Source: Candidatus Electronema halotolerans | GTDB taxonomy: Bacteria; Desulfobacterota; Desulfobulbia; Desulfobulbales; Desulfobulbaceae | Direction of reading: 5' to 3' | Length of the DNA: 32,000 nucleotides | Assembly (NCBI GenBank): GCA_942493095.1 | Contig: OW818675.1 | Location: 1,260,001 to 1,292,000, forward strand | Part shown: positions 6,222 to 29,036 of the stretch, piece by piece | Layout of the letters: each line of letters begins with the position of its first letter | Numbering within the stretch: position 1 is the stretch's first letter | Position numbers and translations under genes: made by a program | The notes under the pieces: model-generated | Database searches by the model: none | Told to the model about the DNA's origin: nothing | Seen by the model: the letters and a program-made list of their open reading frames with translations, nothing else

Positions 6222-6743
6222 TCATCTGTTCTTGTTCCATGCCGCCAAAGCGGCGAATGGAGAGTTTTCCGTCTCAGCCGCGCAGGCGCAGCTCTGGCTG
6301 TTCAAATTCGCGCCGCAGTTTGGACAAAGCCCCTGGCAGTCCGGCGAGCAGAGCTGCTTGACCGGCAGGCTGAGAAAAAGCTGCTGCCGGAGGATTTCAG
6401 TCAGATCCGCCGCAGGCTCATCCACTTCCAACAGCTCAAGCTCTGCGCTGTTGTCCAGCTCCTTGACGCTCCAGCCGTCCTCATCCTGCTCCGGCACTTC
6501 CAGCAGGAGATGGAACTCGGCAGCAACGGGAACGTCGTATTCCGTCAGGCAGCGGTCGCAGGTCAGCCGCAGCTTGGCGCGAAATGTTCCCTGCGCCTCA
6601 GCCCGGTGCGCTGCCTTGGGCCGCAGAGTCAGTTCTGCTTCTGTCGGACCAGCTACAGTCAGTCCGGCTGCGGTCAGCCACGCATCGTCAGTGAAACGGT
6701 AGTGACTGCCATTCTGAGCAATTTCGGCAAATGGAATCTTCAT
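6222..6743 (-). CDS. yceD: YceD/DUF177 family protein (23S rRNA accumulation protein)
   Basis: LTCDRCL...CSPDCQGLCPNCGANLN are the two Cys pairs typical of DUF177. Its position upstream of rpmF is conserved. I place the start at MKIPFAEI (complement of 6741-6743). The 274-aa version in the track adds a low-complexity extension that overlaps the divergent gene. Confidence 0.85.
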   Translation of the reverse strand: MKIPFAEIAQNGSHYRFTDDAWLTAAGLTVAGPTEAELTLRPKAAHRAEAQGTFRAKLRLTCDRCLTEYDVPVAAEFHLLLEVPEQDEDGWSVKELDNSAELELLEVDEPAADLTEILRQQLFLSLPVKQLCSPDCQGLCPNCGANLNSQSCACAAETENSPFAALAAWNKNR

Positions 6744-6930: not shown

Positions 6931-8856
6931 ATGAAAAACAAAGCGCAGGCGGCAGCCCCGGAAGTTGTCAGCGAATTTCTCGGCAAAATCATGCCGTTCA
7001 AGGAACTGGCCCCAGAAACCATCCAGCAGGTGGCCAGCCAGGTCAAGGTGGATTTCTATCCCAAGGGCACCCGTCTGTTTCAAGCGGGCAAAAGCAGGAT
7101 TGATTACCTTTACCTGATTCAGCAGGGCGGGGTCAAATCCTTTATTGTTGATGACGAAGGCGTTGAAACTCTGAAGGATTTCAGAGGGGAAGGCGACTAC
7201 ATCGGCGCGCTGGGCATTATTCGCGGCACGCTGGCCAGTCTTGAGGTGGAGATGGTTGAGGACACCTTCTGCTTTCTCCTGCCCAAAGAGGTTTTTCTTG
7301 ACCTGATCAAAACCCAGCCCGGCTTTTCCCAGTATTATCTAAAGAGCTTTTCGGAAAAAGTGGTGACTGCGGCCTACAGCGAGCTGCGGCGGCACCGAAT
7401 GGGCCGGAGCAGTGACAGCAATCTCCATCTTTTTTCCATTCAGGTCGGCGACATCATCCGTCAGCCGCCGCGCAAGATTGGCGCAGATCGCAGCATCCGC
7501 GAGGCCGCAGGCAGAATGGCCGAATACCGGGTCGCCTCGCTGCTTATTCATGCGCCGGAAGACGAGGAGCAGATCATCGGCATTGTCACGGACCGCGACC
7601 TGCGCAACAAGGTGCTGGCTCCGGGCCGGGACACCAACGAAGCTGTCCAAACGGTGATGTCCGCGCCAGTTGCGACCATTCTTTCCCAGTCAACCTGCTT
7701 TGATGCCCTGATCAAGATGATGTCCGCCTCCATTCACCACTTGGCTGTGGAGCAGAAAGACCGGATCATCGGCGTGATCACCTCGCACGACATCACTCTG
7801 ATTCAGGGCCATGCGCCATACTCCATGTTCAAGGAAATCGGCAGGCAGCAAGGAATTGAAGGGCTGCATCCCCTCTCCCGTCGGCTGCCTGAGATGATCC
7901 GCAATCTGATCCGGGAAGGTGCCAGAGCCGGACATATTGCCCGGATGATCGCCATTCTCAACGATCAGATCATCGAGCGGCTGCTCACCCTGCTGGAGGA
8001 AGAGCTGGGGCCGCCGCCAGTGGATTACTGCTGGCTCTTAGTTGGTTCCGAGGGCAGGCGCGAGCAGACCTTCCGCACTGATCAGGATAATGCCATCATT
8101 TACGAAGACCCGGCGGACGAAGCGCAGACAGAGGAATGTGAAGACTACTTTTCCAAATTTGCCCGCCGGGCCATTGGTCACTTAGTCCAGTGCGGCTATC
8201 CGCTCTGTCCGGGCGGCATCATGGCGGTCAATCCGCGCTGGCGGCAGCCGCTCTCAGTCTGGAAAGGTTATTTTGAAAACTGGGCGGCCATGCCTGAGCC
8301 AAAGGAGCTGCTCAATGCGACGATATTCTATGATTTCCGGCCAGGGTTCGGCAAGGCAGCCTTGGCGGACGAGCTGCGCCAGCATCTGAACGCGGTCACG
8401 CAGCGGCAGGAGTTGTACCTCTTCCATCTTGCCAAGCAATGCCTCGGAGCCAGAGTGCCGCTCTCCTTTTTCAAGAATTTCATTGTCGAAAAGAACGGCG
8501 AGCATAAGAACAAGCTCGATATCAAGACCCAAGGGCTGACTCCCTTTGTCAACTTTGCCCGCATTCTCGCCCTCAAGCACGGCATCAGGGAGACCAACAC
8601 CTTGGCCCGGCTGCAAGTGCTGGCCAAGGAGAGCTGCCTCAGCGAGGAGCTGGTCGCCAAGGCAGTTGATGCTTATGAAATGCAGATGCAGGTGCGGCTC
8701 GTCCATCAGCTCAACCAGATGGACGCAGGCCAGCAGCCGGACAACCACATTGATCCCGCTGACCTGTCCGAGCTGGACCGGCGGCTGCTCCGCGATGCCT
8801 TTGAAGTGATTGAACGGCTGCACGGGCTGCTGCGGACCCTGTTCCCCACTGCCTGA
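6931..8856 (+). CDS. Cyclic-nucleotide-binding / tandem CBS / DUF294 putative nucleotidyltransferase signalling protein
   Basis: N-terminal cNMP-binding-like region (FYPKGTRLFQAGKSRIDYLYLIQQG...GEGDYIGALG). Two CBS-like stretches (ASLLIH..IIGIVTDRDL; HHLAVEQKDRIIGVITSHDI). Then SEGRREQTFRTDQDNAII, the DUF294 nucleotidyltransferase motif, plus a C-terminal substrate-binding helical part. GGAGGTG lies 6 nt upstream of the ATG. Confidence 0.85.
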   Translation: MKNKAQAAAPEVVSEFLGKIMPFKELAPETIQQVASQVKVDFYPKGTRLFQAGKSRIDYLYLIQQGGVKSFIVDDEGVETLKDFRGEGDYIGALGIIRGTLASLEVEMVEDTFCFLLPKEVFLDLIKTQPGFSQYYLKSFSEKVVTAAYSELRRHRMGRSSDSNLHLFSIQVGDIIRQPPRKIGADRSIREAAGRMAEYRVASLLIHAPEDEEQIIGIVTDRDLRNKVLAPGRDTNEAVQTVMSAPVATILSQSTCFDALIKMMSASIHHLAVEQKDRIIGVITSHDITLIQGHAPYSMFKEIGRQQGIEGLHPLSRRLPEMIRNLIREGARAGHIARMIAILNDQIIERLLTLLEEELGPPPVDYCWLLVGSEGRREQTFRTDQDNAIIYEDPADEAQTEECEDYFSKFARRAIGHLVQCGYPLCPGGIMAVNPRWRQPLSVWKGYFENWAAMPEPKELLNATIFYDFRPGFGKAALADELRQHLNAVTQRQELYLFHLAKQCLGARVPLSFFKNFIVEKNGEHKNKLDIKTQGLTPFVNFARILALKHGIRETNTLARLQVLAKESCLSEELVAKAVDAYEMQMQVRLVHQLNQMDAGQQPDNHIDPADLSELDRRLLRDAFEVIERLHGLLRTLFPTA

Positions 8857-8868
8857 GCATCAAAAAAT

Positions 8869-9987
8869 TCAGCCGAGCCGGTGCATGAGCCAGAGGGCGG
8901 TGTTCAGAGCTGCACCCTGCTGAATCTGCTCGTTAAGCGAACCAGGTGGGATGACGGCTTTTTCCTTGCTGACTGCTTCCATGAGCAGTTGCCAGCTTTT
9001 TCTGAGCAGGGGCGGCAAGGCAAAGGAGGGTGACTCCTCTGCTCTGCCTGCGCCGGGCAGAAGCAGCTCCATGTCCGGCAGGCCGTCTAAATGCTGGGCC
9101 AGCTCTGCGGCTGCATCGACAAAGTCCGACTCTTGCAGCAGCCCGGCAGCATAGAGCGCGTTCATCGGGTTGAGCGGCTGCGCGGCGAGCAGATTTTGCA
9201 GGCCGTTTTGGCTGAGAACCTTGCGTCCATGCAGCAGGCCAAGACGGAGCTGCTCAGTCTGCCGGGCGGCAGGGCTGGCAGGATCAAAACCCTTGCCCAT
9301 CTCGTTCATCAGCACCGCAGCTTCCGGCAGATTGGCCCGCAGCAGCTGCACACCGGGCAGCCAGCCATCTTCAGCCACGGCAAAAATCTGCGTCTGCCAG
9401 CCCGCCAGCGTGAGCACGAACATTTCGTAAATCTCACCCTGCTCCTCCTCGACCCGCAGACAATAGGTGCCGGGGTTCAGTTCCAGATGCAGAACGCATA
9501 ACCGGCTTTCCGCATTGCAGATGCCGTGCTCCGCCTTGGCCATCAGCCCGCCGTCTAAATTATGCAGTGACACGCCCAGCCAAGGTTGGGCAGCAGCTTC
9601 TGTCAGTCCCCTGAGAACAAGAAAGAACTGACTGCCGTTTCCCGCTCGAAAAGGCGCAGTCTTGGCACGGGATAATTCCTGCGCCGCCTCGCCGTGCTCC
9701 TGTCGCCATGTCATGGTCTGGCGCAGGGGAACTGGGCTGGCAAACTGCACTGCCGGGCCGTCAAAGACCTTGACCGCAGCATCTGCCGGCACTTCGATCA
9801 GGCTGTCGCTCTGCACCTGCCCGACCCGGAAGCGGGCCTTGTACAGCCCCGGCGCAACCATCGCCTCAACACTGCCGATTCCGGCGGCAATTTTCTCAAA
9901 GCGGCGGTCCACCAGAAAAACTTCAGTCAGGCTGTCCGCCGCATTGACTCGGAGAGTCACCATGCTCTCAGACTGTGATCCGCTCAT
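8869..9987 (-). CDS. Hypothetical protein, last gene of the transglutaminase/caspase operon; beta-sandwich (PEGA/CarboxypepD_reg-like) N-terminal region and helical C-terminal region
   Basis: The ORF is long and non-repetitive. AMVAPGLYKARFRV and LELNPGTYCLRV echo LELEPGLYKIAV in the C-terminus of the upstream caspase. The start is uncertain. M26 (9987) has GAGGTG 7 nt upstream and a 20-nt overlap with the caspase gene. M34 (9963) lies 4 nt after the caspase stop. Confidence 0.5.
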   Translation of the reverse strand: MSGSQSESMVTLRVNAADSLTEVFLVDRRFEKIAAGIGSVEAMVAPGLYKARFRVGQVQSDSLIEVPADAAVKVFDGPAVQFASPVPLRQTMTWRQEHGEAAQELSRAKTAPFRAGNGSQFFLVLRGLTEAAAQPWLGVSLHNLDGGLMAKAEHGICNAESRLCVLHLELNPGTYCLRVEEEQGEIYEMFVLTLAGWQTQIFAVAEDGWLPGVQLLRANLPEAAVLMNEMGKGFDPASPAARQTEQLRLGLLHGRKVLSQNGLQNLLAAQPLNPMNALYAAGLLQESDFVDAAAELAQHLDGLPDMELLLPGAGRAEESPSFALPPLLRKSWQLLMEAVSKEKAVIPPGSLNEQIQQGAALNTALWLMHRLG

Positions 9988-11005
9988 TGTTCGGCACCTC
10001 GAAAATTTTCTGGCGGCCTGTGCTGCTGACCGCGATTTTATACAGTCCCGGCTCCAGCTCAAGGCTCAGGCTGGCGGCTGAGGCTTTTTCCTGCCGAATT
10101 TCCTTGAAGTCGCCATTGTAGAGCACCAGCGTTTCCGTGCCGCTGTAGGGCTGGAGATCAACCTGCACTGGCAGAGCTGCGGCCTTTTTCCGCTGAAAAA
10201 AGGTGATGTCGCGGTACGAGTCAAGACGGATTTCCGGGGGTTCAATTGTCACATCTCCGGCAAATTTGGCCAGACTGTTATGAATCTGATTTTTCAGCAG
10301 CCCGCCAGTCACGCGGCCCTGCTCATCCGGGCCGGTCACACGCAGGGCATCCAGAACCGCCTTGGTGAAAATGCCTGACTTTCTGCCGTCAGCAAAGCTC
10401 CGCTCTCTGGCCACTTGCCCCCTGCCCACGGCAAAGGCGTAAAAACAGCGCACTTTGTCCGCTGCCGGGCTGCCCGCGCTGACCACATACTGCGGCTCCC
10501 GGATTGAATGCCACGAGTTGACCGTGCGGCAGCAGTCCATGATTAGGACCAGCTCATCAAAGACCGCATGACGGTGCAGCCATTCCACATAATCTGTGAT
10601 TGCAACATGCCAAGGAAACATCCTTTTTGCATTGGCGGCGTAGAGAGCGGTCTGACTGATGTCACCCGGATCGCCAAAGCCGTGCCCGGCGACAAAAATG
10701 TAAAGCCGTTCGCCCTGCCGTCCCTGCACCCCGTTGACAATGAACGGCTCAAACAGGGCCTCGACCTGATTCGGGATCGGTCGGGCTTCTTCAGCAGAAA
10801 AATCTGAGGAGAGGATGCGCCGGATATTGCTTTCCGGCAGATTGCCGCCTGTCGGGTCGCGCAGCCAGGCATAAAAATCTTCCGCATCATTGACCGGCCC
10901 TTTGAGCGGTGCCAAACCGCTCAGAGGATAGTCGTTGATGCCAATGACAATGGCACAATGCTGCTTATTGGACATCATCCGGCACCTGTGCTTGAATGGA
11001 AACAT
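9968..11005 (-). CDS. Caspase-like (peptidase C14, orthocaspase) protein with C-terminal beta-sandwich domain
   Basis: CAIVIGINDYP...LKGPVNDAEDF, the His context YIFVAGHGFG and the Cys context LVLIMDCCRT give a C14 His/Cys dyad arrangement. Alternative starts are M10/M11 (10978/10975). Confidence 0.8.
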   Translation of the reverse strand: MFPFKHRCRMMSNKQHCAIVIGINDYPLSGLAPLKGPVNDAEDFYAWLRDPTGGNLPESNIRRILSSDFSAEEARPIPNQVEALFEPFIVNGVQGRQGERLYIFVAGHGFGDPGDISQTALYAANAKRMFPWHVAITDYVEWLHRHAVFDELVLIMDCCRTVNSWHSIREPQYVVSAGSPAADKVRCFYAFAVGRGQVARERSFADGRKSGIFTKAVLDALRVTGPDEQGRVTGGLLKNQIHNSLAKFAGDVTIEPPEIRLDSYRDITFFQRKKAAALPVQVDLQPYSGTETLVLYNGDFKEIRQEKASAASLSLELEPGLYKIAVSSTGRQKIFEVPNNERITV

Positions 11006-13024: not shown

Positions 13025-13373
13025 GTGAAATTGACAAATTTTCTTCAAGAAACACAGAATTCATTAAAAAACAACTACCTTGCCGATGACAGGCCGTGGG
13101 TTGTCGCTTTTTCCGGCGGCAAGGACTCGACATTGGTTTTGCAACTTGTTTATGAGATGCTGCTTGAACTTGACGACCAAGCTGTGAAACCAGTGCATAT
13201 CGTCTGTTCAGACACCCGCGTGGAGCCGCCCAATGTTGCTGAATATCTTCACAACAGTCTGCGGCAGCTGGAAGAACATGCAAAGCAATGCCGTTTTCCT
13301 CTCTTTGTTCATATTGTTCAGCCAACACCTGATGAAAGTTTCTGGTTTATTCTGGTTTAATGTGATAGGGAAA
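13025..13373 (+). pseudogene. dndC: 5' remnant of DNA phosphorothioation gene dndC (PAPS-reductase-fold sulfurtransferase)
   Basis: DDRPWVVAFSGGKDSTLVLQLVYEML...VHIVCSDTRVEPPNV...PDESFW has the P-loop SGGKDS and SDT.VE motifs of DndC N-termini. A 10-bp tandem duplication (tctggtttat/tctggtttaa, 13341-13360) shifts the frame. Without it the reading continues FWFNVIGK, then ends. About 110 of roughly 500 codons remain. Confidence 0.75.
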
Positions 13374-13903
13374 GTTGCATGATGGATGGAATTAACAGAT
13401 ATTTTAAATTGTTTTATAATCTCCGGGCGGATACGAGCAAGAGACGATGGTCTGAAGCAACTTGCTGCCGGGCACCGCACAAGCCTCTTTTCTTGCTTTC
13501 TATTTTTGATCTGATAGCATCAGGTGGAATAGTTGACAATTTTATAACGCCTTCGTTTGAACTCTCTGATTCTTTCGCAGCATACTGGTCAGCTGTCATG
13601 CCTCTTGGAAGTACCGGTTTAATGTGTTTGCCATTTTACCATCTTGCCACATCTGGATTTTGGCACCTTATACCGCAGCCAGATATGTTAGATGAACGTG
13701 GCCGTTCTATCAAATCAATGAAGCGTTTTACTTTTTTCTATCAGGGAGCCAAATTTAGTGATGATTTGTTTTTGTTGTTGAAAAACGAGCATTTCTTAGA
13801 AAAGCTGAGAACAATCTTGATTAAAACTTATTTTTCTCCTGATGCTCAGATAGCTTTAGCGAAGCAATCAATAATAAATTTAGAGTCATCGAAATATAGC
13901 TGT

Positions 13904-14091
13904 GTGGATTCAACTCGCAAGTGCAACTTTTTTTGGTTATCCAAAAAGCATAGGTTGGCTGGCACTTTGAATACTTCATGTAAATTTTCAATTATTTTCT
14001 CTTAGTTAGCGACAAAAGCAAAGTTGTGACACTCCCGTAACTGCCTTTTCTTGCAACCAAAAAAAGTTGCACTTGGAACTTGAATTCACCC
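13904..14091. mobile_element. MITE-like element (about 188 bp) with 35-bp terminal inverted repeats
   Basis: 13904-13938 (gtggattcaactcgcaagtgcaactttttttggtt) matches the reverse complement of 14055-14089 at 31/35 positions. It is flanked by a direct repeat (c)tgt at 13900-13903 and 14091-14094. Excision restores the host reading frame. Confidence 0.65.
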
Positions 14092-14443
14092 TGTAAAATA
14101 CTTGGGACAAATGAAATAATAAAAAATTATGAATTAACAATAGAAGATGAAGGTGTAAAAAATAAAATTCGGAGTCGAGGATTTCGCAAAGCCATTGTTA
14201 AATTGTATGAGCACCGTTGTGCTCTATGCGGCCTTCGCATCTTGACACCAGAAGGGCATACAGTTGTTGAAGCTGCTCATATTATACCTTGGAGTGCAAG
14301 TAAAAATGATCAACCACAGAACGGCATGGCCTTGTGTCGATTATGTCATTGGTTTTTTGACGAAGGTTTGATGGGAGTAGGAAAGTGTTATGAGATTCTG
14401 ATTTCACCTCTTGTCCGTCAGGGTGACAATTATCCCGGCCATA

Positions 14444-14569
14444 TAGCGGTTATGGGTTGAACGGCTATCAAATATCTTTGCTTTGTCAAAATTTTTGTAT
14501 GTATAAATTCAACAAGTTAAATTAAGCATCAATATATCAGGGTGATCACCATTCGGCGTGTAACCGCTA
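14444..14569. mobile_element. 126-bp MITE derived from an IS630-family element, TA target duplication
   Basis: The termini are tagcggtta.../...taaccgcta, flanked by TA (14442-43 and 14570-71). The left end matches the left end of the IS630 copy at 24285 at 23/30 positions. The right end matches at 21/29. Excision plus one TA restores the host frame. Confidence 0.7.
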
Positions 14570-14837
14570 TATAGAGACTATGACCGGTCGGGGCATTTTA
14601 AAACCTGAGAAAAAGATGTTCTGGCCTGATTTAGAATATTTAGAAATCCATAGAAAAGAAATTTTCAGAAAAAATTGATGTTATAAGACTCAATCATTAA
14701 ATTCATAGTTACTCACTTATCGAAAATCCTTGCAGAGGTATATTTTATAACTCGCCTATTACAAAAAAAATGACGGTCAACCTCCTGATATACGATATGA
14801 ACTGATGCTGACCACTTTTGCCGTCACCGTGTACAAG

Positions 14838-19060: not shown

Positions 19061-19093
19061 TCTCACTCCGGCATTGAGCAGGGCGCTTGATGC

Positions 19094-19125
19094 CGGATTC
19101 AAATTGCACGTGCAACTTGAATCCG
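19094..19125. repeat. 32-nt near-perfect palindrome related to the termini of the MITE at 13904
   Basis: cggattcaaattgcac|gtgcaacttgaatccg has 16-nt arms with one mismatch. 19095-19118 matches 13906-13929 at 21/24 positions. It overlaps a second hairpin (tccggcat...atgccgga, 19067-19097). There is no T-tract, so it is not a classical terminator. Confidence 0.5.
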
Positions 19126-21107: not shown

Positions 21108-22616
21108 TTGACAAAATCAACAGGTAAAGATTATGCTGCCGTTATGAATTTCAGTGTTCCTAGTGAAAAAGAAGTCCGTGCTGCATACGCAGAAGGCGAA
21201 GAAGCGGTCGTCGCCCTGTTTAGCAGTATAACTGCGCAGGTTGAAAACCTCGCCGCTCAGTCAGCCAAGCAGTCCGAGATATTGAAGGATTTGCAGGCCC
21301 GGCTGTCGAAAAACAGTCGGAACAGCGGGAAACCGCCTTCGAGCGATGGATACGGTAAAGCGAAGCGAACGGAAAGTCTGAGAGAGTCCGGCAGGAAGCC
21401 GAACGGCGGCCAGCCAGGTCATCAAGGGCATACTCTTGAGCGGTCTGCGGCGCCGGATTCTACGGAGAGGTATAAATCCGAGGAATGCGCGGCTTGCAAA
21501 ATGTCGCTTGCGGATGTCGTCGCTGTCGGAGAGGAGGAACGGCAGGTTTATGATATTCCGGCGATTCGGATTGAAGTGACCTCGCATCGAGCGGAAATAA
21601 AAATCTGTCCCGGCTGCGGCACGGAAAACAGAGGCAAATTCCCGGAAAACGTCGGACAGGGCATCCGTTACGGCACGGGGGTGAAAACTTGGGCGGCATA
21701 TTTCGCGAACCAGCATCATATTCCGCTTGAACGGGCTGCGCAGATTATCGAAGACCTGACCGGGCATTCCGTCTCCGAGGGTTCGCTGCTGAAGGCATCG
21801 GAAGAGCTTTGCGGATGCGTGCGTCCTTCAACGGAAGCAGTCGAAAAACTGCTCATGAATACCGATGTGTTACATGCCGATGAAAGCGGAGTCCGCGTGA
21901 AAGGGAAGCTGCACTGGCTGCATGTCGCTTCGACGAACTGCCTCACCCATTATTCGGTGCATGAAAAACGGGGAAAAGAGGCGATGGACGCAGCGGGAAT
22001 CCTTGGAAAGTTCACAGGAACAGCGACGCATGATCATTGGAAATCGTACTTCAGCTATGAAAACTGCGGTCATGCGCTGTGCAATGCGCATCATCTCCGG
22101 GAACTCAAGTTCATAGAAAAACAGTATGGACAAGTTTGGGCCGGCGAGATGGCCGAGCTGTTGCTTGAAATAAAAGGCGCGGCTGAAAAGCTGAAGCCGG
22201 ATCGGGACGGCTTCGCGCCGGAGAAGATCGAAGAATTTGAGCGGCGGTATGATGAAATCGTCCGACGGGGTTTTGCCGACAATCCGTTCACTCCGCCTAA
22301 GGAGAAAAAACGAGGACGGGCGAAGAAGACTCCGCCGCTCAATTTGCTGACACGGATGCGTGATTACAGGGCGGAGACCCTCGCATTCATGTATGATTTC
22401 CGGGTTCCGTTCGACAACAACGCGGCGGAAAGAGATGTGCGGATGATCAAGGTCAAGCAGAAGGTTTCCGGCTGCTTCCGAACACTTGAGGGGGCAGAAC
22501 GATTCGCCTGTATCCGGGGATATATCTCCACGGTCCGTAAAAATTCAAGAAACATTTTTGAAGCGATCAAAGATGCTTTCCTTGGAAGTCCTTTTATCCC
22601 CGATTCCGCAGTATAA
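21108..22616 (+). CDS. IS66-family transposase
   Basis: A zinc-finger region (CAACK...CPGCG), then HADESGVRVKGKLHWLHV, ATHDHWKSY, CNAHHLRELKF and PFDNNAAERDVRMIKVKQKVSG are present. The start is either TTG 21108 (track) or the in-frame ATG at 21144. Confidence 0.85.
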   Translation: MTKSTGKDYAAVMNFSVPSEKEVRAAYAEGEEAVVALFSSITAQVENLAAQSAKQSEILKDLQARLSKNSRNSGKPPSSDGYGKAKRTESLRESGRKPNGGQPGHQGHTLERSAAPDSTERYKSEECAACKMSLADVVAVGEEERQVYDIPAIRIEVTSHRAEIKICPGCGTENRGKFPENVGQGIRYGTGVKTWAAYFANQHHIPLERAAQIIEDLTGHSVSEGSLLKASEELCGCVRPSTEAVEKLLMNTDVLHADESGVRVKGKLHWLHVASTNCLTHYSVHEKRGKEAMDAAGILGKFTGTATHDHWKSYFSYENCGHALCNAHHLRELKFIEKQYGQVWAGEMAELLLEIKGAAEKLKPDRDGFAPEKIEEFERRYDEIVRRGFADNPFTPPKEKKRGRAKKTPPLNLLTRMRDYRAETLAFMYDFRVPFDNNAAERDVRMIKVKQKVSGCFRTLEGAERFACIRGYISTVRKNSRNIFEAIKDAFLGSPFIPDSAV

Positions 22617-22662: not shown

Positions 22663-23099
22663 GTCAGGCTGAGTAGTTACAGAGCTTGTTTGATGCAGTG
22701 GCTGCTGGTTCTTCTGAGCTGGAGGCAGCAGCCAAGTTTGTTCGGGGCATTGCCCGCAATGCGTGCCGTTTCACCTGAACACTAATTTTTCCGATAATTT
22801 ACGAGCTGCTTTCCCTGCGAGGTGATTCGACTGGGCCGTTTTGTGCTGTTGGCAGGATTGCGGATGGACGAGTAAAAAATACCTGCGATGTAAAGCAGAT
22901 ACCTTTTTCACAACTGACGCTGCACTTGCTGTACAACGGTCTGTCAATAATCCTTTAAAAAAGGAGGAGGCATCCTTGCAATAGGCATCCTTTTTTTGCT
23001 ATAAAAAGATATGACCTTATTGGTTTTATGTCGCATAGCAGCATAAAAAAGAAATGCTAAGCCTTTTAACAAAAAAAGGCGCAGCTCAAGGAGAGATTG

Positions 23100-24287
23100 A
23101 TGAATAAAAAGACCTTAACAGCATTATGTTTGGCATCACTGATGCTTACAGCTAAAATGGCGCAAGCGCAAGAAGAGCAGGCTCCTTCATGTGAAACTGC
23201 TTATGCGTTTGGTTCTAAAACCTTCAGCGATATTGGCTTTACTCGTTGGGGGTGGGAGATAGTTCTACAGGGAAATGAGTTTGTAAGCACCAAAGTTTAT
23301 GCTGGTGCGGGACAGACTGACATCTTGAAAGGAACGTATGTAGGGGATCTCGAAGTTACTAGGGACAACGATCTTGTCACCTTTCAACTCCAGATGCTGG
23401 ATGGCTTCTCTGTAAGCGAAACACATATTTATGTGGGAACTTCTGATCTCTCGAAATCAGCACCTGGGCAATATGCCAATCTTACTGAAGGTAAGATCAA
23501 TTCTTTTGGCAATGGCCTGTTTAAAGTTGAACTTAATGATACTGTCACCGAGGGCGCGAAGTTATATGTTGTCGTTCATGCAGTAGTTTGTACTGGTGGA
23601 GGGGATCCAAATAATGGTGGAGACGATCCAAATGCCGAATGTGACCCAGCAGACAGCCCGTGGAAAGGAATTTGGGACAGTGCTGTAGAGTACAAGGCTG
23701 ACGATGTTGTTGAATATGAAGGCAGCAGCTATGTCAACGTTTGCTGTGATCCGCAAACAGCAGGCACAGCACCTCCTGATGATTTGTTTAATTCCGTCAC
23801 TAACGAAGGTTGTTGGAAACTCGTAGCTGAGAAAGGCGATACTGGAGCGACAGGTGAAACAGGTCCGACCGGCGAGCAAGGTGAAGTAGGTCCCGAAGGT
23901 CCGCAAGGGCCAATAGGCCCCGCTGGCCCGCAAGGTCTGAAGGGTGATAAAGGTGACAAGGGCGACACCGGCGATCAGGGAGAAGTAGGTCCCGAAGGCC
24001 CGACCGGTGCTCAAGGCCCGCAGGGCGAAGTAGGCCCGATTGGCCCGCAAGGTCTGAAGGGTGATAAAGGTGACAAGGGCGACACCGGCGATCAGGGAGA
24101 AGTAGGTCCCGAAGGCCCGACCGGTGCTCAAGGCCCGCAGGGTGAAGTAGGCCCGATTGGCCCGCAAGGTCCCGAAGGCCCGACCGGTGCTCAAGGCCCG
24201 CAGGGCGAAGTAGGCCCGATTGGCCCGCAAGGTCTGAAGGGTGATAAAGGTGACAAGGGCGACACCGGCGATCAGGGAGAAGTATAG
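23100..24287 (+). CDS. 5' fragment of the collagen-like gene (signal peptide, N-terminal domain, first 50 G-X-Y triplets), terminated by a TAG supplied by the IS end
   Basis: This is the track ORF 23097..24287. ATG 23100 is preferred over TTG 23097. The stop TAG at 24285-24287 is the first three bases of the IS630 terminus. Confidence 0.85.
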
Positions 24288-25329
24288 CGGTTTCGTATTG
24301 AACAGATATCAAACCCAGCAATGACGGAAAAACGATTTGATTGATTTTGACTTAACCGTTTTCAGAGATATATCATAAGCTTCCATCAGCTCACGCTCTG
24401 TTCTCGGCTTCAATTTTCTTATAGTGTTTTTCATTACTGACCAGCAGTATTCAATAGGGTTCAGTTCAGGACGATAAGGAGGGAGGAAAATGATCTTCGC
24501 TCCTGTACTTCTGATCAAAGCGAGAGCTTCTTTGTTTTTATGAGGACTGGCATTGTCAAGAACGACTGTCTTGCTGCTGTCAAGATATTTCAAAAGATAA
24601 TTTTTTATATAGAAATAAAAGACATCTCCTGTCATGGTGCCTTTAAATTTCATGCACTTCAATATTTTTCCAAACTTTACAGCTCCTATCATGCTTATTC
24701 TTTTCCCTTTACCTGAAGGTCTTTTTGAAAAAGCTCTTGTTCCTTTTCTTGATCTTGCAAATTTTCTCGACATGTTCAAACAGCATCCTGTCTCATCAAT
24801 AAAGATGAAATTCTTTTTGTCAGCCTCGAGCAGGCCTGCAAGGTAATTAACTGTCTTTGCTATATTTTCCTCTTTATACGCCGCCGGATCGCGGAAAGTT
24901 TTTTTTTCCGGCTGATTTTCAGTCTGGCGAGAGTTTCGCACAGCGTGGAAGGTGCTATTTTTAAATTGAATTTCTCGTATAAGCGATCACACATCTCTTC
25001 AAGCGTAAGATCGTTCTCGTCATCAATCATGCTGGTCAGAAAAGGCATATGAACTTCCTTGATTTTCGGAGGATTTCCGCCTTTATGAGGCTTCGGCTCA
25101 AGCGTCCCCTCAGTCTTCCATCTTTTTACAAGACTTTGAACAAATTTATAGGAAACGTCAAGCAAATCTGCAGTTCTTCTCAATGATTTCTGTTTTTCAT
25201 AAACAGACAAGACTTTCTTTCTGAAATCAATAGAATAAATCATGGCAGACCTCCGTGTGTAAAAAAATGGAAAAAACAGACAAGTCAAGTTTAATCTTTT
25301 TCTGATAACCATACAACCTGAAACCGCTA
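24285..25329 (-). mobile_element. IS630-family (Tc1/mariner-like) insertion sequence, 1045 bp, TA target-site duplication
   Basis: The termini are tagcggtttc.../...gaaaccgcta: 10 bp perfect, about 27 bp imperfect. TA occurs at 24283-84 and 25330-31. The uninterrupted array motif gagaagTAggtccc is reconstituted on excision. The element is visibly AT-rich relative to the host repeat. Confidence 0.85.
24309..25243 (-). CDS. IS630-family DDE transposase, encoded in two overlapping frames joined at an A9 run
   Basis: orfA (25243..24860) carries the HTH part, MIYSIDFRKKVLSVYEKQKSLRRTADLL, with GGAGG 6 nt upstream. orfB (24941..24309) carries FIFIDETG, VVLDNASPH and PPYRPELNPIEYCW, the DD(35)E triad. 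A -1 shift on AAAAAAAAA (24899-24907) would give ...KISRKKKTFRDPAAYKEE... and a 311-aa fusion. Confidence 0.8.
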
Positions 25330-25331
25330 TA

Positions 25332-28300
25332 GGTCCCGAAGGCCCGACCGGTGCTCAAGGCCCGCAAGGCGAAGTAGGCCCGATTGGCCCGCAAGGTCTG
25401 AAGGGTGACAAGGGCGACACTGGCGATCAGGGTCTGCCTGGCAACGACGGTGCTCAAGGCCCGCAGGGTGAAGTAGGCCCGATTGGCCCGCAAGGTCTGA
25501 AGGGTGACAAGGGCGACACTGGCGATCAGGGTCTGCCTGGCAACGACGGTGCTCAAGGCCCGCAGGGTGAAGTAGGCCCGATTGGCCCGCAAGGTCTGAA
25601 GGGTGACAAGGGCGACACTGGCGATCAGGGTCTGCCTGGCAACGACGGTGCTCAAGGCCCGCAGGGCGAAGTAGGCCCGATTGGCCCGCAAGGTCTGAAG
25701 GGTGATAAAGGTGACAAGGGCGACACCGGCGATCAGGGAGAAGTAGGTCCCGAAGGCCCGACCGGTGCTCAAGGCCCGCAAGGCGAAGTAGGCCCGATTG
25801 GCCCGCAAGGTCTGAAGGGTGATAAAGGTGACAAGGGCGACACTGGCGATCAGGGTCTGCCTGGCAACGACGGTGCTCAAGGCCCGCAGGGTGAAGTAGG
25901 CCCGATTGGCCCGCAAGGTCCCGAAGGCCCGACCGGTGCTCAAGGCCCGCAGGGCGAAGTAGGCCCGATTGGCCCGCAAGGTCTGAAGGGTGATAAAGGT
26001 GACAAGGGCGACACTGGCGATCAGGGTCTGCCTGGCAACGACGGTGCTCAAGGCCCGCAGGGTGAAGTAGGCCCGATTGGCCCGCAAGGTCTGAAGGGTG
26101 ATAAAGGTGACAAGGGCGACACCGGCGATCAGGGAGAAGTAGGTCCCGAAGGCCCGACCGGTGCTCAAGGCCCGCAGGGTGAAGTAGGCCCGATTGGCCC
26201 GCAAGGTCTGAAGGGTGATAAAGGTGACAAGGGCGACACTGGCGATCAGGGTCTGCCTGGCAACGACGGTGCTCAAGGCCTGCAGGGTGAAGTAGGCCCG
26301 ATTGGCCCGCAAGGTCTGAAGGGTGATAAAGGTGACAAGGGCGACACTGGCGATCAGGGTCTGCCTGGCAACGACGGTGCTCAAGGCCCGCAGGGTGAAG
26401 TAGGCCCGATTGGCCCGCAAGGTCCCGAAGGCCCGACCGGTGCTCAAGGCCCGCAGGGCGAAGTAGGCCCGATTGGCCCGCAAGGTCTGAAGGGTGATAA
26501 AGGTGACAAGGGCGACACTGGCGATCAGGGTCTGCCTGGCAACGACGGTGCTCAAGGCCCGCAGGGTGAAGTAGGCCCGATTGGCCCGCAAGGTCTGAAG
26601 GGTGATAAAGGTGACAAGGGCGACACCGGCGATCAGGGAGAAGTAGGTCCCGAAGGCCCGACCGGTGCTCAAGGCCCGCAGGGTGAAGTAGGCCCGATTG
26701 GCCCGCAAGGTCTGAAGGGTGATAAAGGTGACAAGGGCGACACTGGCGATCAGGGTCTGCCTGGCAACGACGGTGCTCAAGGCCTGCAGGGTGAAGTAGG
26801 CCCGATTGGCCCGCAAGGTCTGAAGGGTGATAAAGGTGACAAGGGCGACACTGGCGATCAGGGTCTGCCTGGCAACGACGGTGCTCAAGGCCCGCAGGGT
26901 GAAGTAGGCCCGATTGGCCCGCAAGGTCCCGAAGGCCCGACCGGTGCTCAAGGCCCGCAGGGTGAAGTAGGCCCGATTGGCCCGCAAGGTCTGAAGGGTG
27001 ATAAAGGTGACAAGGGCGACACCGGCGATCAGGGTCTGCCTGGCAACGACGGTGCTCAAGGCCCGCAGGGTGAAGTAGGCCCGATTGGCCCGCAAGGTCT
27101 GAAGGGTGATAAAGGTGACAAGGGCGACACCGGCGATCAGGGAGAAGTAGGTCCCGAAGGCCCGACCGGTGCTCAAGGCCCGCAGGGTGAAGTAGGCCCG
27201 ATTGGCCCGCAAGGTCCCGAAGGCCCGACCGGTGCTCAAGGCCCGCAGGGCGAAGTAGGCCCGATTGGCCCGCAAGGTCTGAAGGGTGACAAGGGCGACA
27301 CTGGCGATCAGGGTCTGCCTGGCAACGACGGTGCTCAAGGCCCGCAGGGTGAAGTAGGCCCGATTGGCCCGCAAGGTCCCGAAGGCCCGACCGGTGCTCA
27401 AGGCCCGCAGGGTGAAGTAGGCCCGATTGGCCCGCAAGGTCTGAAGGGTGATAAAGGTGACAAGGGCGACACCGGCGATCAGGGAGAAGTAGGTCCCGAA
27501 GGCCCGACCGGTGCTCAAGGCCCGCAGGGTGAAGTAGGCCCGATTGGCCCGCAAGGTCTGAAGGGTGATAAAGGTGACAAGGGCGACACTGGCGATCAGG
27601 GTCTGCCTGGCAACGACGGTGCTCAAGGCCTGCAGGGTGAAGTAGGCCCGATTGGCCCGCAAGGTCTGAAGGGTGATAAAGGTGACAAGGGCGACACTGG
27701 CGATCAGGGTCTGCCTGGCAACGACGGTGCTCAAGGCCCGCAGGGTGAAGTAGGCCCGATTGGCCCGCAAGGTCCCGAAGGCCCGACCGGTGCTCAAGGC
27801 CCGCAGGGCGAAGTAGGCCCGATTGGCCCGCAAGGTCTGAAGGGTGATAAAGGTGACAAGGGCGACACTGGCGATCAGGGTCTGCCTGGCAACGACGGTG
27901 CTCAAGGCCCGCAGGGTGAAGTAGGCCCGATTGGCCCGCAAGGTCTGAAGGGTGATAAAGGTGACAAGGGCGACACCGGCGATCAGGGAGAAGTAGGTCC
28001 CGAAGGCCCGACCGGTGCTCAAGGCCCGCAGGGTGAAGTAGGCCCGATTGGCCCGCAAGGTCTGAAGGGTGATAAAGGTGACAAGGGCGACACTGGCGAT
28101 CAGGGTCTGCCTGGCAACGACGGTGCTCAAGGCCTGCAGGGTGAAGTAGGCCCGATTGGCCCGCAAGGTCTGAAGGGTGATAAAGGTGACAAGGGCGACA
28201 CTGGCGATCAGGGTCTGCCTGGCAACGACGGTGCTCAAGGCCCGCAGGGTGAAGTAGGCCCGATTGGCCCGCAAGGTCTGAAGGGTGATAAAGGTGACAA

Positions 28301-29036
28301 GGGCGACACTGGCGATCAGGGTCTGCCTGGCAACGACGGTGCTCAAGGCCCGCAGGGTGAAGTAGGCCCGATTGGCCCGCAAGGTCTGAAGGGTGATAAA
28401 GGTGACAAGGGCGACACCGGCGATCAGGGAGAAGTAGGTCCCGAAGGCCCGACCGGTGCTCAAGGCCCGCAGGGTGAAGTAGGCCCGATTGGCCCGCAAG
28501 GTCTGAAGGGTGATAAAGGTGACAAGGGCGACACTGGCGATCAGGGTCTGCCTGGCAACGACGGTGCTCAAGGCCTGCAGGGTGAAGTAGGCCCGATTGG
28601 CCCGCAAGGTCCCGAAGGCCCGACCGGTGCTCAAGGCCCGCAGGGCGAAGTAGGCCCGATTGGCCCGCAAGGTCTGAAGGGTGACAAGGGCGACACTGGC
28701 GATCAGGGTCTGCCTGGCAACGACGGTGCTCAAGGCCCGCAGGGTGAAGTAGGCCCGATTGGCCCGCAAGGTCCCGAAGGCCCGACCGGTGCTCAAGGCC
28801 CGCAGGGTGAAGTAGGCCCGATTGGCCCGCAAGGTCTGAAGGGTGATAAAGGTGACAAGGGCGACACCGGCGATCAGGGAGAAGTAGGTCCCGAAGGCCC
28901 GACCGGTGCTCAAGGCCCGCAGGGTGAAGTAGGCCCGATTGGCCCGCAAGGTCTGAAGGGTGATAAAGGTGACAAGGGCGACACTGGCGATCAGGGTCTG
29001 CCTGGCAACGACCGGTGCTCAAGGCCCGCAGGGTGA
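25332..29036 (+). pseudogene. Middle fragment of the collagen-like gene (409 G-X-Y triplets, phase 0), ending at a frameshift-induced TGA
   Basis: ggt ccc gaa ggc ccg acc ggt gct caa... reads [42 protein letters not shown]... The sense frame contains no ATG, GTG or TTG codon. After the extra C at 29012/13 it reads NDRCSRPAG, then TGA at 29034-29036. Confidence 0.8.

Follow-up and report, generated by a model that had tools for sequence, protein, structure and literature searches.

A gene for a sulfur-binding HNH nuclease, lodged in a gutted dnd operon of Candidatus Electronema halotolerans, is interrupted by two miniature transposable elements

SBD-HNH enzymes such as EcoWI restrict plasmids which carry phosphorothioate (PT) modifications (PMC7461809). 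EcoWI, SprMcrA and Ksp11411I (PMC7461809, PMC7470945) share the same organization: a sulfur-binding domain (SBD) at the N-terminus, of the winged-helix type, a linker and a C-terminal HNH domain. The dnd genes write the modification which these enzymes read. Both are seldom neighbours: SBD-HNH genes adjoin dnd in under 3.6% of cases, and it has been suggested that dnd is not functional there (PMC7461809). Here we describe a locus of this kind in Candidatus Electronema halotolerans (Desulfobulbaceae). We have studied a stretch of 32,000 nucleotides, which we call the window (assembly GCA_942493095.1, contig OW818675.1, positions 1,260,001–1,292,000 of the forward strand); our coordinates start from its first letter. 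In this window an SBD-HNH gene, the reader, occupies the place of the core of a dnd operon, the writer. The gene is itself interrupted by two unrelated miniature inverted-repeat transposable elements (MITEs), E1 and E2. The locus is a concrete example in favour of a prediction already published, namely that dnd is a dead writer where it has an SBD-HNH gene beside it.

The SBD-HNH gene is found in three pieces (Table 1). Two open reading frames (ORFs) are apparent, 13379–14005 and 14080–14460, and an in-frame tail goes from 14572 to a stop codon at 14678. When 13904–14094 (191 nt) and 14444–14571 (128 nt) are excised in silico, a single ORF of 981 nt and 326 codons is obtained, with protein junctions ...SKYSC/KILG... 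and ...PGHI/ETMTG... A first-pass annotation, made from the letters of the sequence alone, had described the two ORFs, the unlisted tail and both excisions, and all of them are exact to the nucleotide. The limits it gave for the elements need a small correction: the elements proper are shorter than the excised segments, E1 ending at 14090 and E2 at 14569.

A protein search with the rebuilt sequence gave a protein of 326 aa (P0001) with 99% identity. Its source is contig L001 (Logan SRR21856587), which is collinear with the window except for both inserts: its positions 1–623, 620–975 and 967–1195 align with 13271–13903, 14091–14446 and 14566–14794 of the window, with 6 substitutions in 1195 nt. 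A second contig, L055 (ENA ERZ23499198), has an allele of 328 aa, 95% identical, in which both sites are empty as in L001. The two contigs are independent, assembled from other metagenomic samples. Since the gene is uninterrupted in both of them, these are true empty sites and decisive proof of the insertion proposed in the first-pass annotation.

The target duplications are perfect at both sites. The sequence CTGT, single in L001 and L055, is double in the window (13900–13903 and 14091–14094); the first two segments of L001 overlap by exactly these 4 nt. E2 has a TA duplication (14442–14443 and 14570–14571). Its empty site reads CCATATAGAG, and the sole symmetrical solution is a TA duplication around an element with ends TAGCGGTTA...TAACCGCTA. 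E1 lies after codon 175, in the long helix which joins the SBD and HNH domains. E2 lies in codon 292 and severs the conserved C-terminal tail of the protein, piece C, with its five invariant residues R298, P303, W309, P310 and H318. In its present state the gene is a pseudogene.

The inverted ends of E1 (13904–13938 and 14055–14089) are 35 nt long and 89% complementary. We scanned a genome collection with a 19-nt core of these ends and obtained 14 loci: 12 are single chance matches, the other two (L011 and L020, in Ca. Electronema sp. JC) are real. The latter, on two contigs, are full-length copies with 84–85% identity to E1 and 3–4-bp flanking repeats. A near-perfect palindrome of 33 nt, CGGATTCAAATTGCAC followed by GTGCAACTTGAATCCG, is found in the window at 19093–19125, just 3' of the stop codon of a beta-helix gene (959 aa). 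The arms of the palindrome are similar (87% identity) to the outermost ~24 nt of the ends of E1. A terminator hairpin is one possible reading of it, a minimal relic derived from E1 another.

E2 has imperfect inverted ends of 27–30 nt, weaker than those of E1. It is present at the same site in an independent Logan assembly (L009), while another one (L008) begins inside E2; the start of L009 near E1 and that of L008 inside E2 are the usual behaviour of assemblers at repeats. A metagenome scan with a degenerate pattern of the E2 ends gave 19 loci, and one of them is real, the JGI metagenome contig L041 (Ga0316588_1011638). A further copy, met by chance outside that scan, is found in L051 (Ga0450797_017486), where it follows closely downstream of a dnd operon. 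Both copies are full-length, have a TA duplication and lie at sites unrelated to ours. The empty-site alleles and the copies elsewhere fix the same ends for each element, as expected for the two unrelated MITEs of the first-pass annotation, and additional copies of both, which it had asked for, exist in other genomes or contigs. A search of the window itself which allowed up to 3 mismatches gave no second copy of either element. Both are MITE families not named before, apparently from Desulfobulbaceae similar to cable bacteria.

A likely parent of E2 lies 10 kb downstream of it, within the window: an insertion sequence of the IS630 family (Table 1) with inverted ends and ORFs which match Pfam HTH_Tnp_IS630 and DDE_3. 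The ends of E2 are identical to both ends of this element in 21/27 positions (P about 1e-8), as compared with 20/27 between the two ends of the element itself. This similarity and the TA duplication indicate that E2 is a MITE of the IS630 type with a plausible parent in the same 32 kb. Like other MITEs derived from IS630/Tc1-mariner elements it is small, AT-rich and non-coding, duplicates TA and has the ends of a co-resident IS630 element; it differs from its presumed partner by an unrelated internal sequence. The transposase of the 24285–25329 element, whose ends are so similar, most probably acted in trans to move E2. Copies of this element with 85–93% identity are found in L051, L052 and L055; a comparison with a plasmid collection gave no match. 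L055 has an IS630-family insertion (1479–1566) about 130 nt downstream of its intact nuclease gene, and the dnd operon of L051 is flanked by an IS630 end (1–236) and by its E2-family MITE (6579–6704). It seems that IS630-family transposons often target these nuclease and dnd loci or lie next to them. The closed genomes of cable bacteria are reported to contain insertion sequences in abundance (PMC10030654).

Two other explanations of the interrupted frame have been considered. In the first one the three ORFs are naturally separate and code for a sulfur-binding protein, an HNH nuclease and a small peptide, with plain intergenic DNA in between. Piece A alone does encode a complete SBD, with 175 residues plus 33 encoded by the element. 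However the two near-identical uninterrupted alleles, L001 and L055, refute this reading, to which we give practically no weight. About 1,700 homologues are found at E <= 1e-5, and the 120 listed are all single proteins of 298–345 aa, typically about 325 aa, nearly all of them spanning 97–100% of the query; the first-pass annotation had named separate homologues as what would speak against an insertion. Conservation crosses both junctions (G290, H291, T294, R298), and the DNA between the pieces is bounded by inverted ends and target duplications and recurs at unrelated loci. In the second explanation the interruptions are removed from the RNA or the protein, as an intron, an intein or by programmed recoding, and the gene still works. 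The small size of both insertions and their length, 2 mod 3 in each case, could fit this idea, but it is hardly conceivable: they have the hallmarks of transposons, the elements occur in non-coding contexts elsewhere, E1 carries in-frame stops and a search of the whole window with Rfam, intron families included, gave no match.

The rebuilt protein is an SBD-HNH enzyme of a divergent clade. The NCBIfam model PT-DNA_restrict (NF045808) matches over its full length (E 7e-37), reaching residue 324, the end of the model. Against this assignment stands the score of 127 bits, below the curated cut-off of 180; intact relatives also stay below it (131–136 bits). A full-length alignment with a low score which is shared by the relatives indicates a divergent clade, distinct from the EcoWI-type clade of the model. 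Pfam HNH_2 covers residues 217–270 (E 1.2e-11), and the catalytic H/N/H and Cys4 zinc residues of this beta-beta-alpha-metal domain are all there: C217, C220, H237, N251, C256, C259 and H260, invariant or nearly so in an alignment of 42 sequences of the family. Pfam PF26340 is given for many of the homologues. Residues 31–148 match PDB 8H0L, the SBD of Hga, with E 1.7e-10 in a single-sequence phmmer search; a profile of the 42-member family finds 8H0L at E 3e-18, together with a weak match to ScoMcrA.

The fold agrees with this result. An AlphaFold model of the protein (pLDDT 87.9) was compared with known structures by Foldseek: the best match of the SBD is 8H0L (TM 0.88, rmsd 2.2 Å), followed by the SBDs of SprMcrA (7CCD, TM 0.68) and ScoMcrA (5ZMO, TM 0.61), while the C-terminal half matches VcaM4I and TagI. 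Thus the N-terminal domain, for which the first-pass annotation had considered that a different fold might appear, has an SBD fold, and its reading of an SBD joined to HNH_2 is borne out by the full-length model and by both matches to 8H0L. In SBDHga, the SBD of the PT-dependent nuclease Hga from Hahella ganghwensis, the hydrophobic sulfur pocket is formed by H25, K26, L75, P76 and H79 (PMC10602919); the Sco and Spr domains have H/R and Y-P in this pocket. The same positions are occupied here by H34, K35, L84, P85 and H88, all five identical (the 8H0L chain has an offset of +3); K35 and P85 are invariant in the family alignment. The motifs RAPHKP and LPFYHL, named in the first-pass annotation, align to this pocket. 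Its comparison with ScoMcrA and SprMcrA was right as regards the SBD fold, but the closest solved relative is Hga. The intact enzyme is predicted to cleave PT-modified DNA.

How does this protein compare with the systems already described? It keeps the KPxxLL...PF...L...W signature of EcoWI, SprMcrA and Ksp11411I, and in its relatives the gene is usually a stand-alone one, as in that family; it differs from them by its low model score and by being a pseudogene in the window. By sequence its SBD is nearer to Hga than to SprMcrA or ScoMcrA. As in SBDHga, a small leucine takes the place of the tyrosine found in the Sco and Spr domains. On the other hand the SBD of Hga is fused to a PD-(D/E)XK nuclease, whereas ours is fused to HNH. 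The protein of the window may share the sequence-independent PT recognition of Hga. ScoMcrA (5ZMM/5ZMO; PMC6224610) also combines an SBD with an HNH domain, and its Y164-P165 aligns with L84-P85; however our protein lacks both the SRA domain and the N-terminal head domain of ScoMcrA, and identity is 10–17% in the alignments with 5ZMM, 5ZMN and 5ZMO. A PT-binding HNH nuclease encoded at a dnd locus has been described in the form of wHTH-SRA-HNH proteins (PMC10853773), where wHTH stands for winged helix-turn-helix. There an intact dnd module is followed by the nuclease, whereas in the window the nuclease lies inside the operon, the core is replaced and there is no SRA domain.

The remains of the operon are found on both sides of the gene. 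Upstream there is a remnant of dndC, which matches TIGR03183 in positions 3–102 of 447 (E 1.2e-27; 96.9 bits, short of the curated cut-off of 290), in keeping with the dead dndC of the first-pass annotation. It has 90% amino-acid identity with residues 1–111 of an intact 444-aa DndC (contig L049). The PP-loop SGGKDS of this PAPS-reductase-like sulfurtransferase is kept; the Fe-S cysteines have gone with everything past about codon 115, in a deletion which apparently occurred between GAAAA repeats. At the very end of the remnant a tandem duplication of 10 nt (TTCTGGTTTA x2, 13340–13359) shifts the frame. The dndC deletion is common to the window, L001 and L055. The duplication is absent from L001 and L055 and thus adds another recent lesion, found in this strain alone. 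A patch of low GC content begins at the dndC fragment, at about 12.9–14.75 kb, with 36–48% GC as compared with mostly 53–66% elsewhere (in steps of 500 nt). Downstream of the nuclease gene there is a 26-nt relic of dndE::ftsK, after which the window runs into bioF. Beyond this relic a tblastn search found no coding remnant of dndD or ftsK in the window.

Table 1. Coordinates of the features of the interrupted locus and of the IS630-family element in the window
Feature	Position	Strand	Description
dndC remnant	13025..13360	+	N-terminal ~115 of ~445 codons; DNA phosphorothioation sulfurtransferase
SBD-HNH gene, piece A	13379..13903	+	Codons 1–175: SBD with the larger part of the linker helix
MITE E1	13904..14090		187 bp, 37% GC, 35-nt terminal inverted repeats, CTGT duplication
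SBD-HNH gene, piece B	14095..14443	+	Codons 176 to 292 (first base of 292): HNH_2 nuclease core
MITE E2	14444..14569		126 bp, 35% GC, ends TAGCGGTTA...TAACCGCTA, IS630/Tc1-mariner type
SBD-HNH gene, piece C	14572..14678	+	Rest of codon 292 through 326 and stop
dndE::ftsK relic	14718..14743	+	26 nt, TATCGAAAATCCTTGCAGAGGTATAT; right junction of the nuclease cassette (window-L043-L051 alignment)
IS630-family insertion sequence	24285..25329	-	1045 bp, TA duplication 24283–24284 and 25330–25331

What was replaced is apparent in related contigs. The nearest related nuclease with a usable context is P0005 (76% identical), found in L043/L044 with a DndC of 303 aa before it and an FtsK-like protein of 403 aa after it. 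A search with this DndC gave homologues of 441–448 aa with 81–90% identity; they head a dndC-dndD-dndE::ftsK operon in the contig pairs L049/L050 and L051/L052, where the dndE::ftsK fusion has 508 aa. A DNA alignment with L051 demonstrates that L043 is that operon with 2797 nt swapped for 1036 nt: its positions 7094–7982 correspond to the 5' part of dndC, and 9019–10211 to dndE::ftsK from codon 114. The region lost starts at codon 298 of dndC, includes the whole of dndD and ends at codon 113 of dndE::ftsK. The insert of 1036 nt is the nuclease gene with 18 nt upstream and 37 nt downstream. The window has the same right junction of this cassette as L043, and the left ends differ: codon 297 of dndC in L043, about codon 115 in the window. 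Related nucleases are also found in contexts without dnd, namely in Ca. Electrothrix marina (L002–L007), in L053/L054 (P0004), in L046/L047 (P0008) and in Desulfolithobacter (L048).

The 303-aa DndC of L043 was also considered as a naturally short partner of the nuclease. We rejected this idea: its homologues of 441–448 aa are found in full operons, and the 6 residues at its end result from read-through. In the relatives (L049, 2202–7089; L051, 1582–6478) the dnd operon has itself an unusual layout: the DndE domain is fused to an FtsK/SpoIIIE ATPase, neither dndA nor dndB is adjacent, and in L051 dndD is found in two ORFs, of 490 and 198 aa.

The nuclease gene has dN/dS values of 0.14–0.18, with dS about 0.9–1.0, when the window or L001 is compared with L043 or E. 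marina. It was therefore a working gene under purifying selection for most of its history. When the window allele is polarised with L055, it has a single derived amino-acid change, S13Y. The few differences with L001 and the perfect target duplications indicate that both insertions are very recent. The truncation of dndC is older, because it is common to the alleles with an intact reader, L001 and L055. All six substitutions between the window and L001 lie in the SBD half of the gene, within its initial 413 nt, with none in the other 568 nt; within 13416–13791 (codons 13–138) four of six change the amino acid. This clustering could be due to chance or to a small recombination tract.

The most satisfactory explanation, which we consider very probable, is that the window contains a gutted PT-modification operon in which a reader took the place of the writer core and was recently broken by two MITEs. 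The insertions, the boundaries of both elements, their family membership, the domains of the protein and the replacement of the operon core follow directly from the comparisons described above. In an ancestor, a cassette of roughly 1 kb with little beyond the SBD-HNH gene would have settled inside a dnd operon and taken the place of its central part: dndD as a whole, the 3' third of dndC and the DndE portion of dndE::ftsK. With this the writer would have died, and the reader would have persisted as a stand-alone restriction enzyme, similar to type IV, against incoming PT-modified DNA. A deletion between the short GAAAA repeats would then have pared dndC to about 115 codons, the ftsK part being lost as well. 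Next the 10-nt duplication would have arisen in the dndC remnant. Very recently E1 would have entered the linker and E2 codon 292, the latter probably with the help of the IS630-family transposase encoded 10 kb away. We infer the order of the later steps, and also that the breakage of the reader was not itself selected.

Several observations weigh against this sequence of events. The presence of E1 is documented by this assembly only, since the independent contig L009 begins 5 nt past E1. An autonomous parent with the ends of E1 was found neither in the window nor in the related loci compared with it. The transposase of the IS630 element is split in two overlapping ORFs (24860–25312 and 24309–24941), and this copy may be inactive. 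Since the window represents 32 kb and the whole genome 3.2 Mb, another dnd or ssp system, a working one, could be present elsewhere. The dndC arms present a difficulty as well. Their dN/dS is 0.04–0.09 between truncated and intact genes and 0.03–0.09 between intact ones, with no sign of relaxation, and the copies of the cassette differ by a dS of about 0.9. A single ancient replacement followed by neutral decay fits poorly with both values. The dndC arm of the window also differs less from that of L051, an intact dndC (dS 0.34), than from the arm of L043 (dS 1.0). Recent independent losses of the writer in each lineage, recombination of the arms with working dnd alleles and repeated targeting of dnd operons by the cassette are possible explanations.

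The first of them would imply a different history, which we consider possible but doubtful. The nuclease would have settled first between the DndE and FtsK parts of a working operon (dndC-dndD-dndE-HNH-ftsK'), so that writer and reader coexisted. The writer would have been deleted later in each lineage independently, from inside dndC to just upstream of the start codon of the nuclease. The shared right junction, the cassette dS of about 0.9 and the unrelaxed dndC arms are all covered by such a history, and the different left ends in L043 and the window agree with it. There is a parallel in the genes of the PT-sensing wHTH-SRA-HNH proteins: in hundreds of taxa they come immediately downstream of a dnd module which works (PMC10853773). 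However the intermediate arrangement which it predicts was not found among the contexts we examined, and the left junction of the window can equally be derived from an ancestor similar to L043 through the deletion between GAAAA repeats.

Repeated targeting appears improbable to us. The SBD-HNH cassette would then be a selfish element directed against writers and repeatedly targeted to dnd operons. It could spread to dnd+ cells by recombination through the dndC and ftsK flanks, or by repair after PT-dependent self-cleavage, so that the reader would come in and the writer go out in one step. This would jointly explain the right junction shared in spite of a cassette dS of about 0.9, the fresh appearance of the arms and the similarity of the window arm to intact dndC.

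A further question is whether the reader was lost as a result of a conflict. The first-pass annotation had suggested that a dnd system which writes PT and a nuclease which cuts it are incompatible in one cell, and that selection resolved the conflict by the loss of both. Writer and reader are indeed both dead in the window. SBD-HNH genes beside dnd are as rare as indicated above, with a non-functional dnd predicted in such cases (PMC7461809), and the nuclease physically replaces the dnd core, so that gain of the reader and loss of the writer were probably one event. However the reader remained intact after the death of the writer in L043/L044, L001 and L055, it evolved under purifying selection, and no writer was left at the locus when the MITEs arrived. 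The two losses are separate in time, because the truncation of dndC occurs in alleles with an intact reader. A conflict may thus account for the first loss and does not explain the second; as an explanation of both it is unlikely. The death of the reader has the appearance of collateral damage, of recent date, in a genome rich in transposons, or of a result of relaxed selection, and not that of a conflict resolved.

Other features of the window may be mentioned. The IS630 element interrupts a gene on the + strand with collagen-like repeats (Pfam Collagen, E 4e-24, 23097–24287); when the element and one TA are removed, an open frame of 1639 codons crosses the junction (flanks 23097–29030). The region 25.3–31.5 kb has an extreme GC and AT skew, with long open frames on both strands. 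An IS66-family transposase is found at 21108–22616 (DDE_Tnp_IS66, zf-IS66), so that the 32 kb contain four mobile elements: IS66, IS630 and the two MITEs. At 842–1830 there is a second patch of low GC content (41–43%), with a gene similar to Mrr_cat restriction endonucleases and a gene with a PIN domain, on the minus strand. This patch is probably one more island of defence or toxin genes, small and acquired.

The locus is a clean and fairly ordinary case of decay of a defence gene, which does not overturn current understanding. The HNH enzyme with a sulfur pocket similar to that of Hga might become a tool for mapping PT sites, if it is as tolerant of sequence as Hga. The two MITE families, one of them with a likely IS630 parent in the window, should be useful for the annotation of these transposon-rich genomes. 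Above all, the locus provides a decay series which is exact to the nucleotide: an intact dnd operon, replacement of the writer core by a reader, trimming of what remained and the final break of the reader by two MITEs. All these stages are present in closely related environmental genomes.

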